A stretch of DNA of 64,000 bases, taken from the NCBI RefSeq assembly GCF_024521635.1, contig NW_026250410.1:806001-870000 (forward strand), read 5' to 3'. Below are positions 16,796 through 25,238 of this stretch, piece after piece. The DNA is from Tricharina praecox (Eukaryota). The translations under genes and the position numbers were made by a program. Below the pieces are notes generated by a model that worked only from the letters and a program-made list of their open reading frames with translations, was not told the DNA's origin and did not search any database. Position 1 is the first letter of the stretch; each line of letters opens with the position of its first letter.

Positions 16796-18658
16796 GTTCC
16801 CGCAGATTACGAGACGTAACCATTCGTTTGGTGGCGCTCGTTGTAGAAGGAGAGAAGCACAGAGCAATTGGGTTTCATCCATTGGTGATTAAGACGCAAT
16901 TTGTTTGTTGGTTCATATAGTGAGTTGTGTGCGCTTAATGGATTTGGAGTTGGGGCTGCTGTTGTTGGGTGTGCGGGCTTCTTTTCGGGTGGGGGTTTGC
17001 GTCGGGGTTTCTCTTTATGCTTGATTGGTTTGGGCGGGGGAGGGGGGTTTCTGCAACAGGGAAGAACAAGAAGAAAGCTGCTGCTCATCCATACAAAAGA
17101 ATGAGATGGTAGTAGTCTTTTTTACTCTTCTCTTCTCTGCCATGATACCTGCCTGCCGTTTTCAATTTGTATTCACGCGTGTCTTCTCCTTCTTCTTTCT
17201 CTCTCTCTCTCTCTGTTGTTTTGTTTTCTCCGGTAGCTGCCACGAGTACGGGACGGGAATGGATGGGGCTGGAGTCAGGGGATATGGGGGAATGGGATGG
17301 GAATGGGTCGGGGGGTTGAAATATTTCTCGTTTCTTTTCCTTTATTTTTCTTTTCTTCTTCTTCTCTCGTCTATGCGTGTGTGTCTGTGTGTGTGTCTGT
17401 GTGTGTGTTTTTGTTTCCTTTCAGTTCAGGGCTGCCGTTTGGTTGATTTGGTTAGGTTGCATCTGGGCGGGGCGGGGGGGCATTACATGGCTGGGTGCGG
17501 GTGCGGGTTTGCGGGGCTGGATTGGGTTTGCGGGGCTGGGTTGGGTGTGCGGGCTGGGTTGGCGTGCGGGCTTGATAGGGCTTGATAGGGCTTGATAGGG
17601 CTGGTGCAGGGCTGGGTGCGGGCTGGGTAAAGAAAAGTTGGTCTTCTTCTTCTGTTTCGCCTTCGTCTTCGTGTTTGGATTCGCATTTTGATTCCGGTGC
17701 CACGTTTAGTGAGATGATATGAGATGAGATGTGTGGCTCGGTCACTAGTGAATGAGCTTTGTACGGTTCTCGGGGGCATTGGGTTTGTAGGCGGGAGGAT
17801 ATGGGGATTGTGGGAGGGGGAGGTGTTGCGTATCGTATCGTAAAGGGATGAGATGGGTTTGCAAGTAGGCGTGATGGGCCAGGCTGTATCTGAATAATAT
17901 TTGTCGAATCTTGAAACTTTGACCATACCTAGTGCGGGCGAGCGGGCGGGCGGGCGGGCGGGCGGGTGGGTGGGCGGGTGCGGGTATCTACACGGCATAA
18001 GTGCTCCTGGTGATCCATATACCCTACCGGAGCCTGTGGAGTTCGCTAGGTACCACTCGGATACCGATACCGAGTACGGCTGGAGTCTGAACAGCGAGTG
18101 AGCCACTCGGAGCTGCGTTGCAAGAGCAGAGCCACGCGGAAGAGCTGGACGTCTGGATGTCTGGTGCCCCTGCCCCTGCTCCGCTCGTGAGTGCCGCCGT
18201 CTACGCCTTTTCCGGCCCATACATAGCCCAGCGGAGTCCAGCGGAGTACATATGCCGTCGAGTAGTTCGGGACCGCGAGGTTCGGGGCGGGGAGGTTCGG
18301 GACCGTCGCTCCGCAGTCCTCAACGCCCACGACTAATAGACGCAGTAGATCTCTAAGCGGGTATTTGTGACTTTGAGCTGTGAAGAAGCCGATGTAAATG
18401 GTGGGATAGTCTGAGTGACCATAAGTAGCTGTACGGCAGCCTGTAGAGTAGAGCAGAGTAGCGACATACGAGATGGAAAATGTAGCACAGATATTCACTC
18501 ACCCTCTTTACTCTATGTACCGTAGGTGATAACCATCACTCGGTAGCTTAGTCATGTATATAGTAGTAAGAGGGGTGGTCAAAAGCTGTGCTGAAGCAAG
18601 AATAGGTCACGTGAACGGCACAAGACTTAAGCTGAAGCCTTACTCATCAGCACATACC

Positions 18659-19550
18659 TCATACACCGACCATTACATCAATCATTACATTCAAGGGTTT
18701 CTGATAGCTTTTTCCGTTCGTTTTCCGCTTCGTATATCTTCCCATGTGCTGTATAACCTGAGCGAGGTTCTCCCAAACAGCATGTGCACGTGTGTGCGGG
18801 CTCTCGTGGCCGACAGTATTCACACATGTCTGCATGGCGGCCACTGCCAAATTTTCCGCCTGATCCCACTTGTTCTGTATCAAGCTGAATCTTGAAAGTA
18901 AGATGATCGCCACAGCAGTTGACGGGTGTTCGCGTCCAAATACCTTTTCCGAAGCAAGCTTGTAGTCCCAGCACATCTCTTCCGCCTCACCGGTCTTTTC
19001 CAGTAGATCCTTAATCGAAAGCGAACTCCTCGTGAGCTCGATCCCCAGCGCGTGATCTTTTCCCAATCTCTCCCGAAGATCTTTAATCTCTCTCTGCAGA
19101 TACACTTCTGCTTTCCGCAAACCTTCAAATCCACCATAATCCTTCCGAGGGTTGCTTACGCCGAGCACATGCATCATGAAATCCAAACCCCTTTTGTACA
19201 ACACCTGGATATCGGATCCAGTCGTATGTCTGAGGGAGTCGATTTCCTTTTCCAGCTCAGCAGCTTCAGGGCCGCTTCGTTTCAACCACGAATTGGCCAT
19301 CCCTTGGTCGGCGGGGACTCCAAATCCAATGGCACAACAAACTGCGAGCTCGAAGGCACTCTGTGTAGAGCATGAGCAACCTTGCTTGCCATCGAGATTC
19401 CATTTGTTTTCTAAACATTTTACGATGTGCACTCGGATGCGGTACCTATTCGATTAGACTGAGTGGAAGGAACATGGCCGTCACCTGGAGTAAAGAACTA
19501 ATCTTAGCATCCAGAAGGGTAACAATGGTATAGGTACCTACCTATGCCAT
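18659..19550 (-). pseudogene. 3' remnant of a TPR-like (kinesin-light-chain-type repeat) gene
   Basis: Frame reads YRIRVHIVKCLE...AFELAVCCAIGFGV, then repeats LGKDHALG, VFGREHPST, TVGHESPHT and ENLAQVIQHMGRY. An in-frame TAA lies just upstream, an orphan intron spans about 19541-19484, and there is no 5' part. Confidence 0.65.
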
Positions 19551-19559
19551 CCCGCGGAG

Positions 19560-19697
19560 TTGGATGGAGGCGCCGACGTCAACACCGTGAATAAGGATGG
19601 ATGCACCGCACTTGACTGGGCTGTGCAGAATGAAAACGAACAGATGAGAGAGCTACTGCAAAGCTATGCGAGTCGCATTTCGGCTCGCGTGGAGTGA
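19560..19697 (+). pseudogene. Orphan C-terminal ankyrin-repeat fragment (too short for the ORF track)
   Basis: Manual translation: LDGGADVNTVNKDGCTALDWAVQNENEQMRELLQSYASRISARVE*. It matches the ankyrin consensus GADVN..G.T.L..A. No upstream gene body. Confidence 0.75.
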
Positions 19698-20025: not shown

Positions 20026-20189
20026 TATGTACTTTACGACCATCACCATCACACTTTGTTCATGGACTATCTCTACCCACCTATTCGGGCGGATCTCTCT
20101 GAACTGCGGCGAGGACATTAATTCAACAGAAATTATGAAATTACTTGAGCTTGAGAATAAAGACAACAACAGAGTACGCATTACGATAT

Positions 20190-22260
20190 TTACTCCTCCA
20201 GACTGACTGCATACGCATTCCAATTGCGTTCCAATTCTGATACCACCTCCGTGTCAACTTTGCTCTTGAATTCATCATTGTCCAAGGATTTAACCGCGCT
20301 ATCCAGGCCACGGATACAACGCCTCACAGCACCTCCATATATCTCTCCAGCCTCCTCTTCTACGACCGCAACGAGTTGAAAAGTTGAGACCAAGTCGTTG
20401 ACATACTTATTGTCGGAAACTGCATCTTGGGGCTTGAAAAGGTTTTGAAGTCGTTTTCCGAACCAGAGCTCAATCAAGACAACGCCGAGCGAGAATAGGC
20501 TCTGGTTGCTCGTCAAGATGGAAACTTCTGCCGTCGCTTTCGATTTTTGCCGATAATGCCGATCAGGGTGGAAACTTCGCCGAACTACAGGTTTTCTCAA
20601 AACCGCCCCTAGGATCATGATCTCTTCACCGGAAACGCCCCGCGCCCGGGTGGCCTTCTGAGGAAAAAGAATATCGCACGCCCCCCAGCTCTCATCCAGC
20701 CAGTCTGTGGTGTGCAAATGCATCAGCGAGAACGCCAATTCTACGCCGAGTCTTAATCGATCACCGCGGTCGAGATCTTCTCTTTGTAAGAGTTGATCGA
20801 GTGAGACAAACTCGGCCGTGTAGCCTTCGCAGGACGTCGGGCTCGTCCGGATAATCCAGCTCTTATCGGAAGCGAGTACTCCTAGGTCGGGCGAGTTACC
20901 TTCGGCGCTCGCGATGAGTGCACAAAGGTCGGTTATCTCTCGTGCATTCGGTGGGGCTTGGATCGTCGCTTTTGGCAAAGTCTCTATGGCGAACGAAACG
21001 GCTTTCTTTGCCTGTTCACTGAAAGGGATCAGATAAACTTCAATCCAAACCGACACTCCAAGGCTACCTACCCCTGGGTCTTGACCGTTGGTAAACTGCT
21101 TGTGCCCCGCGGTACTGCGGAGACGTCTCGGTCGAAAGAAACGGCTTTCCTTATCTTTTTACTAACAGATAATTAGCTTAATACGACAATCATTTGATGC
21201 TATGTATGGCCGGTTTCTTACTCTCGAATCGGTGTCCGTGGGCTACTTCTACCTCTGAAGATCGACCGGAGGTAAATTTTTAAGCCTTCGAAAATGATAT
21301 CTCGCCGTCTTTCCACCGGCTTCACTATAGCCGGCGCCGGAGTGGGGGTCGCAGTGCGTCTGACTGGAGTAATGGGACGTATCTCGGTGTCTTTGCAGGC
21401 TGTTTCCAGGCCGTTGCGATCGCCGAGAGGCCGAAATTCGAATTCACGCCATGCCAACAGCAATTCGGATTGCATGTCCGAACAGACGTCAAACGACAAG
21501 AGCACACTGAATCGCGGGCTCGGAGTAGTTGACTTCTGGTTTGGTATTCTTTCTAGTCGTAAATTTGCATTGTGCGGTGCTGAGCAACGGCAGGTTTGCT
21601 GAGCGCGAAAAGTTTTCAACAGCGTATCATACAGGTCGATCGCGTTCTTTCGGAAGCGGCTGTAGATCTTTGTATTCTGTCGGGGTGGTTTCGTGACCGA
21701 GTTTGTTCTGCATTGTGCCAATCGCTCGAGAAGCCGGAGCGTTCTGGAGATGTCGTTCAGCGCGTCTTCCTTTCGAAGCACAACCTTCATACGGCCCCAG
21801 GTCTGGCGGTTGGGTTCCACAGACTGCACCAGGTCAGCATCGAGCACATCTATAGTTCGGCTGGAAATGTTTGGAATCACACCTCGTCGTGAATCCCAAG
21901 CTCGTCCCTAAGTTCCTTAAGCAGCTGATGCAGCTCCTTCATCAGTTCTGTGAACCTTGCGGTAGCCTCAGAACCTAACCGCTCCCGGAGCTTGCGTTGC
22001 AAATCGGGGTCATCCCAGGCGTTTCCATTCATGGGTTCCGTCGCGTCCCTCGATGATGCGATTCCCTCGAGAAGCTTGCTGCAAACATCTTCGAAGCAAA
22101 TGCATTCGACATCCAGTTCCCTGACGAGTCGCTTGAGGACACTCCTCCAACCCGCCAAGTCCTGGATCATTTGTGCGCCATCCAGGTAAACTTTCAGGCC
22201 TTTGAGGATTAGGGGAAACACCGCAAGAGCTAGCCCCGCCGCTTCGATACCGGTAACCAT
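20190..22260 (-). CDS. HeLo-like N-terminal domain plus degenerate kinase-C-lobe-like domain protein (about 630 aa, DUF7580-like from memory)
   Basis: ATG at 22260, MVTGIEAAGLALAVFPLILKGL (HeLo/HELL-type first helix). Three canonical introns (21882-21824, 21221-21162, about 21071-21019) join the track ORFs into one open frame. C-terminus RLRLGVELAFSLMHLHTTDWL..W..DILF, LFSLGVVLIELWFG and YGGAVRRCI; stop at 20190. Confidence 0.75.
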
Positions 22261-22459
22261 CGTCGTAAGGAGAAGTGCAGAGGACACGACTGCGGCTCAA
22301 GCCCTTGCAACCAACCTACGCTTATGTGATTGGGGTGCTGCCCTCTCATTGGATGAAGGTGCATGATGGTAACTTGGGCTGGCAGCGTTCCCCCGCACGA
22401 ACCGAGCGGCTGGGTTGAGTTGGGAAGAGGTGTCCTACATGCATAGGAACAGTAAAGTC

Positions 22460-25238
22460 ATGGCCGAACTCACCACTTTGCCGCTTTGCAACGAATCCCT
22501 GAATCTCTTCGTTCGACTTGTCCGGCTTTTGGGGAACTCAGAGGCCCTTTCCCCACTTGTGTCCAAGGATCGTGGTACTACGGCGATAGGCCCTGCCATC
22601 CGGGACGAGTGTGGACGATTCAGAGTTTGGGCCGAGAATGTTGGAGCCCACAGAAGAAATCATCGCCTATCGCTCGATCACCGTCTCAGGGAAGCAACAC
22701 GTGTGAAGAAACTGGTGATCGAACTATTGAAGGACTTGATCACTGCACTTCAAGATGGTTTGTTTCTTCACCGTTGCCGTCTCTCGAGCGAATCTGACGT
22801 TATTAGCGGGTGACATCATATCCGGCAATTATCATGATTCCTACCTACCTAAGTCCGATGCCATATCTTGGTATTCCTTGGAGGCCACAGAACTCGAGGA
22901 AGAACAGACGCTCCTGCGGACTCCATTTGAAGAATGTTTAACCGAAATATCCCATGTCATCACTTGTCTGTACAAGTTCTCGATTACCACCCAAAATCCA
23001 ACGCCTCGTGATAGGTTCGAAAAGTGTGCCGCTATCGACATGTCCCACTTCAAACACTTCGACATTTCTCATATCATGGAAAAGTTTCCAGAGATTGAAG
23101 GGAAAGATTACTTGATCCAGCGCCTTGGGAAGGCCAATACCAAGCGGCGACAACTGCTTCGCTACCACAAAAAGCATCATGAGAAAATTGTCGGCCATTG
23201 GCATACGACGAACGAAGCCGACCTCTTTGAAAAGACGACCTACAAAGCCGATCCCCTCCGTTTTGAGAGTGCATCTATAGTTCAGCCTAGTACTGAGTTT
23301 ACCCAGACCGCCACTACAGTATCAACCTTCGCACAGCCGACCATACAGGAGTATCACGAACCTAGCCCAATTGAATTTGAAGGAACTCCCTCCGAGGGTG
23401 GGCTTTCGCAGACTACTTACACATCTTCTTCTTCTTCTTCCGGAGGATCGGCAAGACAACTTCGTGTCCCTGATCCTCCCAAGGACGATCCATTCGACGG
23501 CGTGCCTTTCCAATGCCCATACTGTTTCACCTTGATCTCACTCACCAACCAGATGTCATGGATGTAAGTGCTGCTACTACCGCGCAGTAACACATGTCCT
23601 AACACTCAACCCAGGAGACATGTCTACAGGGACTTGCGACCATATATTTGCACCTTCGAGTTCTGCGTCCGATCCGAATACCTATTTGCCAGCCGCCAGG
23701 AATGGTTTGAACACGAGCGAGCCTTTCATAGACGGGAGTGGAACTGCAATGCTTGCAAAGAGTCATCTACTTCGAAAGAAATGTTCCGCCAGCATCTACA
23801 AACACGGCATCCAGACGAAGTACAGACCGAAGTGTTTGTCCAACGTGCCGAAGAAGCGATCGAAGCTGTACAAGAGTGCCCTCTGTGCAAGAAGACATAC
23901 TTCCCACGCCGACTCCAGAGTCACCTCGGACATCACATGCAACAGATAGCCTTGTTCATACTTCCCGGAGCCTCCAGCGACGATAATGAGAAAGAGTCTG
24001 TGGGAGAATTTTCGGAGTCGGATGCGGACGACTTTGAAAAGGAGCACGGTCCGGACTCGCCACCTGCGATTGACACCAGCGAAGAAGGCTTTCATGCCGC
24101 GATCAGAGACGGGAACCTTGCAGTTGTCCGGACCGGGTTATCGACCATGAAAAATTCTCCCGATGCCGACGGTTACCTGCCAATTCATCGCGCAGCACAG
24201 GCCGGTCATGCCAACATCGTCGAAGTGCTGTTACAAGCTGGAGTCGTTGTCAACGCGGAGGTCGGAACAGAAGAACGGACACCACTCTCCTGGGCGTCAG
24301 GGAATGGACACGCGGATGTAGTGGACCAACTGTTGGAGAAGGGGGCCGATGTCAACGCAAAACCAACAGGGATCCACGGAAGAACAGCCCTACAAGCAGC
24401 ATCGGACGGAGGCCACCTTGCGGTAGTGGACCGACTCTTGGAGAAGGGGGCCGATGTCAACGCAGAACCAGCACATTATGACGGAAGAACAGCCCTACAA
24501 GCAGCATCGGGAGGAGGCCACCTTGCGGCAGTGGACCGACTCTTGGAGAAGGGGGCCGATGTCAACGCAGAACCAGCACATTATGACGGAAGAACAGCCC
24601 TACAAGCAGCATCGGACGGAGGCCACCTTGCGGTAGTGGACCGACTCTTGGAGAAGGGGGCCGATGTCAACGCAGAACCAGCACATTATGACGGAAGAAC
24701 AGCCCTACAAGCAGCATCGGACGGAGGCCACCTTGCGGTAGTGGACCGACTCTTGGAGAAGGGGGCCGATGTCAACGCAGAACCAGCACATTATGACGGA
24801 AGAACAGCCCTACAAGCAGCATCGGACGGAGGCCACCTTGCGGTAGTGGACCGACTCTTGGAGAAGGGGGCCGATGTCAACGCAGAACCAGCAGGGATCC
24901 ACGGAAGAACAGCCCTACAAGCAGCATCGGACGGAGGCCACCTTGCGGTAGTGGACCGACTCTTGGAGAAGGGGGCCGATGTCAACGCAGAACCAGCACA
25001 TTATGACGGAAGAACAGCCCTACAAGCAGCATCGGACGGAGGCCACCTTGCGGTAGTGGACCGACTCTTGGAGAAGGGGGCCGATGTCAACGCAGAACCA
25101 GCACATTATGACGGAAGAACAGCCCTACAAGCAGCATCGGACGGAGGCTATCTTGCAGTGATGGAGCGGTTGCGAAGGGCCGGCGCGATTCATCAAGGTA
25201 AAATAAGGCTCAAGCTACTCCAAGAACTTCCTGACTGA
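22460..25238 (+). CDS. Helical N-domain + C2H2 zinc fingers + ankyrin-repeat protein (about 890 aa)
   Basis: ATG at 22460 (alternative 22439); introns 22758-22806 and 23564-23614. N-domain DECGRFRVWAENVGAH..SLDHRLREA and RLGKANTKRRQ; fingers FQCPYC..HVYRDLRPYICTFEFC, WNCNAC..HLQTRH and CPLC..HLGHH; about 10-11 ankyrin repeats. Confidence 0.88.
24351..25190 (+). repeat. Eight tandem 105-bp (35-aa) ankyrin units with very high internal identity
   Basis: GTCAAC unit starts at 24351, 24456, 24561, 24666, 24771, 24876, 24981 and 25086; consensus VNAEPAHYDGRTALQAASDGGHLAVVDRLLEKGAD. Confidence 0.97.

Follow-up and report, generated by a model that had tools for sequence, protein, structure and literature searches.

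The 64,000-nt window analysed here (contig NW_026250410.1 of Tricharina praecox, positions 806,001 to 870,000) is fungal and carries a pair of genes, designated L and R, that point away from each other across a short spacer. L codes for a protein in which a helical bundle precedes a DUF7580 domain, and R for a protein with an N-terminal helical module, a cluster of C2H2 zinc fingers and an ankyrin array. The first-pass annotation, made from the letters of the window, had described two intact, spliceable genes diverging from an interval of 200 bp, and this description held up with the interval measured at 199 bp. L starts with an ATG at 22260 on the minus strand and R with an ATG at 22460 on the plus strand, both genes are intact, and their stop codons (20190–20192 for L and 25236–25238 for R) form the limits of the stretch under study. 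Comparison with relatives supports the conclusion that L and R make up a conserved, divergently arranged unit with many paralogous copies in Pezizomycete-like fungi. The features of the pair are listed in Table 1.

Table 1. Features of the L/R gene pair (positions in the 64-kb window; nt, nucleotides; aa, amino acids).
Feature	Position	Strand	Description
Gene L	20190..22260	-	632 aa; four exons: 22260-21883, 21823-21222, 21161-21072, 21018-20190 (including the stop codon)
Gene L introns	21824-21882 (59 nt), 21162-21221 (60 nt), 21019-21071 (53 nt)	-	From spliced contigs, open reading frames and tblastn with homologues
L N-terminal helical bundle	21690..22260	-	About residues 1-170; lower limit approximate
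L DUF7580 domain (PF24476)	20217..21664	-	Interrupted by two introns and by an insert of low conservation that is probably disordered
Divergent spacer	22261..22459	.	199 bp; presumed bidirectional promoter
CCCCGC / GCGGGG element	22391..22396	.	Common to spacers of paralogous pairs; extended form WACCCCGCW
Gene R	22460..25238	+	892 aa; exons 22460-22757, 22807-23563, 23615-25238 (including the stop codon); introns of 49 and 51 nt
R N-terminal helical module	22460..23200	+	HeLo-like four-helix bundle with RFRVWAENVGAH motif; upper limit approximate
C2H2 zinc-finger cluster (probably AcuF type)	23505..23970	+	Fingers at residues 364, 396 and 440 (regular expression)
R ankyrin domain	24108..25190	+	Two divergent units, eight near-identical 35-aa units and a cap; Pfam Ank_2 E 5e-92

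Both L and R are transcribed and spliced. In each of two public runs (X1 and X2), which stem from different studies, one contig skips exactly all five GT..AG introns, three in L and two in R; these spliced contigs span positions 20176 or 20111 to 24359 or 24396. Because five canonical introns are removed on two strands, we take X1 and X2 to be transcript assemblies; their RNA nature is deduced from that loss and is not on record. One contig per run crosses the spacer and links the two spliced genes, which does not by itself show a single transcript. A 107-nt form of the second L intron was ruled out by the spliced contigs of the two runs. The ankyrin array is fragmented in the contigs of both runs, and the bin at 24624–24797 is uncovered. 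At window positions 24899–25102, a contig of X1 'goes back 204' bases within the array, and there are loose ends with other ankyrin-like sequence; these could reflect a different number of units or paralogous transcripts.

The L protein begins with a hydrophobic helix (MVTGIEAAGLALAVFPLILKGL), and the residues E6, A8, G9, L12 and P16 hardly vary among its relatives. L belongs to a large family: when 1.84 billion cluster representatives were searched by phmmer with the syntenic homologue P0002, 1988 proteins were found at E ≤ 0.001, including 655 at E ≤ 1e-10. In Pfam searches the DUF7580 domain was recognized in two parts, the C-terminal part (the exon-4 open reading frame, ORF) with an E-value of 2.1e-21 (score 77.3 bits, cut-off 27) and the N-terminal part with an E-value of 3.3e-5 (24.1 bits), and it was matched in 60 of 61 relatives of L. 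A C-x-C-x3-H motif and one further Cys are nearly invariant in the family, and we suspect from this pattern that they are candidate zinc-binding residues of DUF7580.

The fold of L was judged on a full-length model of P0002 built with 61 relatives (predicted local distance difference test score, pLDDT, 80.6; predicted template modelling score, pTM, 0.65). The model comprises a helical domain at residues 6–165 (helices 6–31, 33–64, 70–77, 85–95, 97–120, 133–144 and 147–165), three strands, a disordered insert at residues 280–365 and an alpha/beta C-terminal part. Every Foldseek match displayed for this model is a protein kinase, with CLK1 the best (E 0.024), BRAF at a probability of 0.99 and the TYK2 JH2 and IRAK3 pseudokinases among them. 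Alignment with VIA gave Z values of 8.9 for BRAF (root-mean-square deviation, rmsd, 4.9; 165 residues aligned), 8.6 for TNNI3K, 8.0 for MLK1, 7.4 for the PAN3 pseudokinase and 7.3 for RIP3, and a Z of at least 5 was reached by 931 of Foldseek's top 1000 chains. Over the whole chain, P0002 aligned with MLKL (4btf; Z 7.6, 267 residues) and with AtMLKL3 (6ka4; Z 7.3, 307 residues). A motif scan of the window L and R proteins found none of the glycine-rich loop (G-loop), VAIK, HRD, APE and Walker A motifs. As the Z values are moderate, DUF7580 is read here as probably a divergent, non-catalytic kinase fold, and in this respect the earlier description of the C-terminal part of L as kinase-like and devoid of catalytic motifs is borne out. 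The VIA matches of the L bundle include a designed repeat protein (Z 10.9), HIP1R THATCH (Z 10.5) and the coiled-coil (CC) domain of Rx (Z 9.2, rmsd 2.8, 103 of 107 residues); the N-terminal domain of MLKL gave a Z of 7.4 (rmsd 3.1, 118 residues aligned), with generic helical proteins scoring equally or higher. As a lead only, L exon 1 has in the ESM Atlas a neighbour cluster (score 0.95) that carries HeLo on 29% of its members, and further neighbour clusters in which some members carry PigL_N (13%) or SesA (14%). Of the HeLo-type N-terminus that had been proposed for L, the hydrophobic first helix and the helical bundle stand, whereas a HeLo assignment is not supported by the sequence searches taken up below. 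An MLKL-like layout for L, with a helical bundle followed by a kinase-fold domain that lacks catalytic motifs, is supported by these models.

The R protein appears to have a HeLo-like bundle of its own, which had been overlooked in the first-pass annotation and is followed by further helices (ITCLYKF..., RLGKANTKRRQLLRYH). It was judged on a model of the homologue P0176 (pLDDT 82.4), in which the bundle occupies residues 7–170 and matches the Sw-5b SD domain (Z 11.0), Rx-CC (Z 10.8), the NRG1 CC-R domain (Z 8.5) and the MLA13 CC domain (Z 8.3). The same bundle aligned with MLKL at a Z of 9.7 (rmsd 2.7, 100 residues) and with the HET-S N-terminal domain (2wvo) at a Z of 7.3 (rmsd 3.5, 115 residues, 16% identity). 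Generic helical proteins reach Z values much like those of all these matches. Pfam HeLo is found in relatives such as P0171 (residues 5–101, E 1e-5; score 25.9 bits, cut-off 23.2) and P0174 (residues 17–128). R exon 1 had no usable match in the ESM Atlas, and a search of PDB sequences with an R-family profile brought up so many ankyrin proteins that it said nothing about the N-terminus.

Intron 2 of R falls within the first finger of the zinc-finger cluster. Among 70–72 relatives, with which the window protein aligns, the Cys and His positions of the cluster hardly vary. The family PF26082 (zf-C2H2_AcuF) is precomputed on R homologues, and the weak Foldseek rows for this region are C2H2 arrays, e.g. 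CTCF (E 0.08). The module formed by approximately the first 480 residues occurs widely in Pezizomycotina and has expanded strongly in Pezizales, with 103 matches to residues 1–480 of P0004. After the zinc fingers, R relatives carry ankyrin (ANK) repeats, TPR, NACHT (P0006, P0007 and P0248; NPHP3_N/NACHT), WD40 (P0259), an SNF2 helicase (P0174), a protein kinase (P0182) or DUF7580 (P0177), and the NACHT-bearing P0007 has an L-family gene as its own partner. The R ORFs of the window had no NACHT or NB-ARC match in Pfam, and a motif scan found no Walker A pattern (G....GK[ST]), in line with the earlier reading of R as free of such motifs. It had also been proposed that a C2H2 scaffold replaces the nucleotide-binding oligomerization domain (NOD) in R, which we reject because the same module precedes NACHT in some paralogs (P0006, P0007 and P0248). 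Judging by these domain combinations, the C2H2 module appears to act like an N-terminal module of NOD-like receptor (NLR)-type proteins, and the window R appears to be a NOD-less member of the family. Six R-family proteins of Pyronema omphalodes (P0193, P0194, P0196, P0199, P0200 and P0201), five of them with ankyrin, lie on an equal-sized contig (260,633 bp), which suggests a local array of the R family.

The eight near-identical ankyrin units described at the end of R were recovered by Tandem Repeats Finder at 24318–25156 as 8.0 copies of a 105-nt period with 95% matches, units 4, 5 and 7 being identical. There are 24 differences from the consensus, 22 of which are nonsynonymous, and 18 lie at unit residues 17–20, where AHYD alternates with TGIH or AGIH. 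The array is thus a repeat of high internal conservation with its changes focused on one loop, and the term 'variable', which had been applied to the ankyrin units, suits that loop only and not the units overall. Near-identical arrays also occur in the R genes of other pairs, with 11.5 copies of 99 nt at 94% in L049, 9.9 copies at 89% in L006 and a match level of 96% in L046.

Analysis of the neighbourhoods of L-family genes showed that the head-to-head arrangement is the rule. A scan of a metagenome set for the L family yielded 63 loci, in which L and R were located by tblastn and which were dereplicated at 97% DNA identity to 42 groups; they come from a few related samples, probably from few genomes, and represent many paralogs rather than many species. 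With the exception of six groups that contain only an L fragment and four with too little upstream DNA, all groups could be evaluated, and 30 of these 32 have an R-family gene upstream on the opposite strand. One of the remaining two lacks an R gene, and the other has R on the same strand and a second L gene beyond it. In the 28 pairs for which both matches reach the first residues, the gap ranges from 104 to 452 bp, with a median of 250 bp. Of 13 L-family proteins looked up in GenBank, 9 are followed, at the next accession number and on an equal-sized contig, by a member of the R family, namely five from Wilcoxina mikolae (on five contigs), two from Trichophaea hybrida and one each from Sphaerosporella brunnea and Geopyxis carbonaria; the equation of consecutive accessions with adjacent genes relies on the numbering of annotated assemblies. 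The other four (P0001, P0014, P0022 and P0026) had no known partner among the proteins looked up. The recurrence of homologues as divergent neighbours, which the first-pass annotation had put forward as a check, is seen directly in the metagenome loci, and the GenBank accessions point to adjacency. One of the unpartnered L-family proteins, P0014, is 48% identical to the Trichophaea one; its record, on a 7.2-kb contig, is assigned to the basidiomycete Lyophyllum atratum, which could reflect assembly contamination or transfer.

The two families also occur fused. In the GenBank protein P0177 the R module is followed by DUF7580 at residues 724–965, and in one dereplicated metagenome group (L022, L023 and L028), counted among the L-fragment groups, the R module is followed by DUF7580 on the same strand; in L023 and L028 the fusion gene itself lies head-to-head with another L-family gene. 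The ORFs that follow the R module were scanned in 27 loci; ankyrin was recognized in seven, TPR in one and GYF or ZZ in two, with nothing recognized in most others; in L014, the sole match of the downstream ORFs is the DUF7580 of the neighbouring L-family gene. An ORF directly downstream of the R gene in L062 (3–848, minus strand) has a strong Pfam HeLo match (E 5.9e-23, profile positions 4–180 of 205) and may be a third gene of that cluster. Retroelement ORFs with reverse transcriptase and RNase H adjoin the R genes of L052 (1423–2877, minus strand) and L036 (1304–1684, minus strand). The nearest relatives of both L and R are found in the Pyronemataceae (Wilcoxina, Trichophaea and Sphaerosporella), and in both trees the window pair is sister to the Trichophaea/Wilcoxina pairs P0002/P0009 and P0013/P0004 with a support of 99. 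Co-duplication of the deeper L and R paralogs is plausible.

The spacers of the pairs share the element CCCCGC, which 26 of 29 spacers contain. In control windows its frequency is only 11–15%, with 84 of 735 positive among those from the locus flanks and 141 of 916 among those from the 64-kb window. This enrichment would fit a common regulation of L and R. We take the element to resemble the GC box bound by C2H2 factors of the Mig1/CreA type.

Since the fused forms suggest a contact between the R module and DUF7580, these two parts were chosen for modelling as a complex, using residues 1–490 of P0004 and residues 175–626 of its neighbour P0013. The interaction prediction score from aligned errors (ipSAE) was 0.70, 0.71 and 0.71 in three runs and 0.00 in the best of three controls; contacts agreed between runs by at least 44%, and the pLDDT of the partner was at least 63. 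In calibration, 51 of 78 solved complexes passed, as did 2 of 108 mismatched pairs. The predicted interface joins R residues 44–62 (the helix with GRLRVWAEN) and 170–180 to L residues 431–435, 572–579 and 616–623 in helices of the C-lobe, and includes the nearly invariant W59, R55 and N62 of R (P0004) and G576 and Y579 of L (P0013). The L and R proteins probably touch each other, as far as this model can tell; the complex modelling that the first-pass annotation had suggested, carried out here on orthologues, came out in favour of binding.

The flanks of the pair carry genes for an alpha-mannosyltransferase, GCP5, an F-box protein, glycogen synthase, AIR carboxylase (ADE2-type) and condensin Cnd3. 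No second copy of L or R was found within the 64-kb window by tblastn with all homologous proteins collected. Just past the 3' end of L, an ORF at 18659–19453 (minus strand) has TPR_10/TPR_12 matches (E 6.6e-7), a short ORF at 19494–19697 (plus strand) has an ankyrin match (E 1.6e-5), and the stretch 18734–19306 is weakly similar, by tblastn, to the TPR portion of one R-family protein. These TPR and ankyrin ORFs may be remnants of sensor-type repeat genes or pieces of an unannotated gene. Window positions 17000–17700 are of low complexity, with CV/TH dipeptide runs (a GT/CA-type microsatellite) and proline-rich frames, and match no Pfam family.

We consider it an evenly balanced proposition that the pair is one copy of a conserved two-gene module, made of a bundle–pseudokinase protein (L) and a bundle/C2H2/repeat protein (R), that works as a sensing and cell-death switch. 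At rest, the C-lobe of the L pseudokinase would hold the R bundle in trans (in cis in the fused forms). The R ankyrin array would be the likely sensor of a ligand, and binding of the trigger would alter the L–R contact; one or both bundles, once freed, would oligomerize and insert into membranes, and the outcome would be regulated cell death or a defence signal. Of the sensor/executioner pair that had been proposed for this locus, the conserved linkage and the R repeat array stand, whereas a clean split between sensor and executioner is not established because R appears to carry a HeLo-like bundle as well.

Several observations weigh against this switch. L–R binding, the direction of signalling, cell death and non-self recognition are roles that we infer for both families. 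Foldseek against the PDB gave no match at E ≤ 0.001 for either the P0002 (L) or the P0176 (R) model, and the Z values of 7–11 obtained for the L and R bundles are in the range that VIA labels a common arrangement, so that no structural match is decisive. A profile of the 61 L relatives against PDB sequences returned nothing significant, the mouse MLKL pseudokinase appearing only at E 0.47. Pfam HeLo (PF14479) had no match in L exon 1 (E ≤ 0.1) or in the window R exon 1, and was matched in one of 61 L relatives (E 1.3e-3) and in just four of 65 R relatives; hhalign comparison of the L bundle with the R bundle or module gave a probability below 1.2%, and below 1% for the two bundles, hence no detectable homology. 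The complex was folded from the Wilcoxina orthologues and not from the window proteins, and from single sequences rather than alignments; 7 of 44 blind neighbour pairs also passed in the complex tool's own test, and conservation at the interface does not exceed the background (0.55 vs 0.47, p 0.07, for R; 0.40 vs 0.42, p 0.61, for L). Once the window clade is left out, paired L and R distances do not correlate significantly (r 0.40, p 0.054), and r is -0.31 for the five paralogs of Wilcoxina. The genes neighbouring the pair are housekeeping genes, and outside the repeats there is no sign of the balanced alleles among strains that had been envisaged, the second run differing at 4 bases over approximately 4 kb (two strains).

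An account without cell death, which we rate as unlikely, makes R a C2H2 factor that binds DNA or RNA and recruits partners through its ankyrin domain, and L a pseudokinase scaffold that modulates it; the pair would control a stress or metabolic programme and might regulate its own promoter through CCCCGC, which we take to be the kind of site that C2H2 factors bind. It would draw on the weak likeness of the C2H2 cluster to DNA-binding finger arrays (the CTCF match), the GC-box element in nearly all of the 29 spacers, the name of the biosynthetic-cluster protein AcuF carried by family members and the housekeeping flanks; it fits poorly with the joining of the R module to NACHT, TPR, WD40 and ankyrin repeats of high internal conservation, as in the N-terminal domains of fungal NLRs, and with the presence of MLKL/CC/HeLo-class bundles at the start of both proteins. 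The many dispersed paralogous pairs, five of them on five contigs of one Wilcoxina genome, recall killer/protector or drive elements, and together with the tight linkage, the predicted contact between a bundle and the partner's C-lobe and the reverse-transcriptase ORFs next to L052 and L036 they could point to a selfish poison–antidote pair, with one bundle constitutively toxic and neutralized by the partner pseudokinase. However, the pairs travel without terminal repeats or transposase, the window copy sits among housekeeping genes, and the variable, sensor-type C-termini are a better fit to recognition than to pure addiction, which makes this scenario quite improbable in our view.

We give similarly little credence to the possibility that L and R are functionally independent neighbours, co-regulated only through a shared bidirectional promoter. 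It would explain why the deep paralogs lack significant co-phylogeny and why the predicted interface is not enriched in conserved positions, but not why the arrangement is kept in 30 of 32 evaluable loci across paralogs that are only 35–45% identical, why fused proteins exist or why the complex model passes when its controls score 0.00. The sensing and cell-death switch can also be stated in a bolder form, which we hold to be possible but on the doubtful side: a NOD-independent and amyloid-independent fungal immune pair that amounts to MLKL split in two, in which the pseudokinase clamps the bundle of its partner in trans and hypervariable repeats release it upon ligand binding. If that were true, the paralogous pairs, numbering dozens and each equipped with a separate sensor, would make up a repertoire comparable to that of the plant paired NLRs.

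Most of what is known about regulated cell death in fungi comes from a small number of NLR/HeLo amyloid pairs and from gasdermin/protease pairs. The control of the numerous MLKL-like proteins of fungi is an open question, for which this locus supplies a concrete, testable partner; the value of the pair lies in its tight linkage, the transcription of both genes, the predicted interface and the many copies with differing sensors (ANK, TPR and NACHT). It also provides a working hypothesis for two unstudied Pfam families, DUF7580 (PF24476), of which L is a member, and the AcuF-like C2H2 family (PF26082), which R relatives carry, and it adds the C2H2 module to the set of N-terminal modules on fungal NLR-like proteins. 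The term 'DUF7580' does not occur in any of 8.4 million searchable papers. The first-pass annotation named no characterized system of this architecture, and we likewise found no description of the L/R pair in main texts under DUF7580, acuF fingers, HeLo plus pseudokinase or fungal MLKL. The available sections of a paper on the N-terminal domains of fungal NLRs contain neither 'zinc' nor 'C2H2' (PMC9815663), and excerpts of another study report C2H2 fingers, mostly C-terminal, in 34 NLRs of Sordariales (PMC12258605).

Among known systems, MLKL and the plant MLKLs share with L an N-terminal bundle followed by a kinase fold without catalytic motifs. L differs from them in having no significant sequence homology, in the C-x-C-x3-H motif and additional Cys of DUF7580 and in its long disordered insert; furthermore, no active RIPK3-like kinase is encoded beside L, and its partner is instead a head-to-head HeLo-like/zinc-finger/repeat protein. 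The plant head-to-head paired NLRs (RRS1/RPS4 and RGA5/RGA4) share with the L/R pair a divergent promoter and, as proposed for L and R, a sensor/helper logic and the duplication of pairs as units, whereas the window copy lacks NB-ARC and belongs to another kingdom with other domains.

Closer to hand are the fungal systems. According to passages of a 2025 review, HeLo/HELL bundles target membranes via their first helix, some of them are fused to kinase or pseudokinase domains, and NOD-less sensors exist in fungal regulated cell death (PMC12881547). HET-S/NWD2 and HELLP/PNT1, as described in the same passages, likewise consist of adjacent genes that combine a HeLo-class bundle with repeats of high internal conservation and are proposed to form a sensor and an effector (PMC12881547). 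These are pairs of an NLR with a HeLo/HELL effector that signal through amyloid, whereas R has no NOD, both L and R carry a bundle, and their coupling is predicted to be a globular contact between the R bundle and the C-lobe of the L pseudokinase. No amyloid motif was recognized in L or R, for which no dedicated search was made; L ends within DUF7580 and R begins with its bundle. The fungal gasdermin/protease clusters, in the portion of the review that treats them, are also two-gene systems, in which ANK, TPR or WD40 repeats are attached directly to the domain that controls the effector and no NOD is present (PMC12881547); the L/R pair has neither gasdermin nor protease, and its effector class would be a helical bundle. 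Thus, the kind of system, a linked sensor and bundle effector, is known, whereas the combination of parts in L and R and the predicted contact in trans between a pseudokinase and a bundle appear new in the literature covered here.

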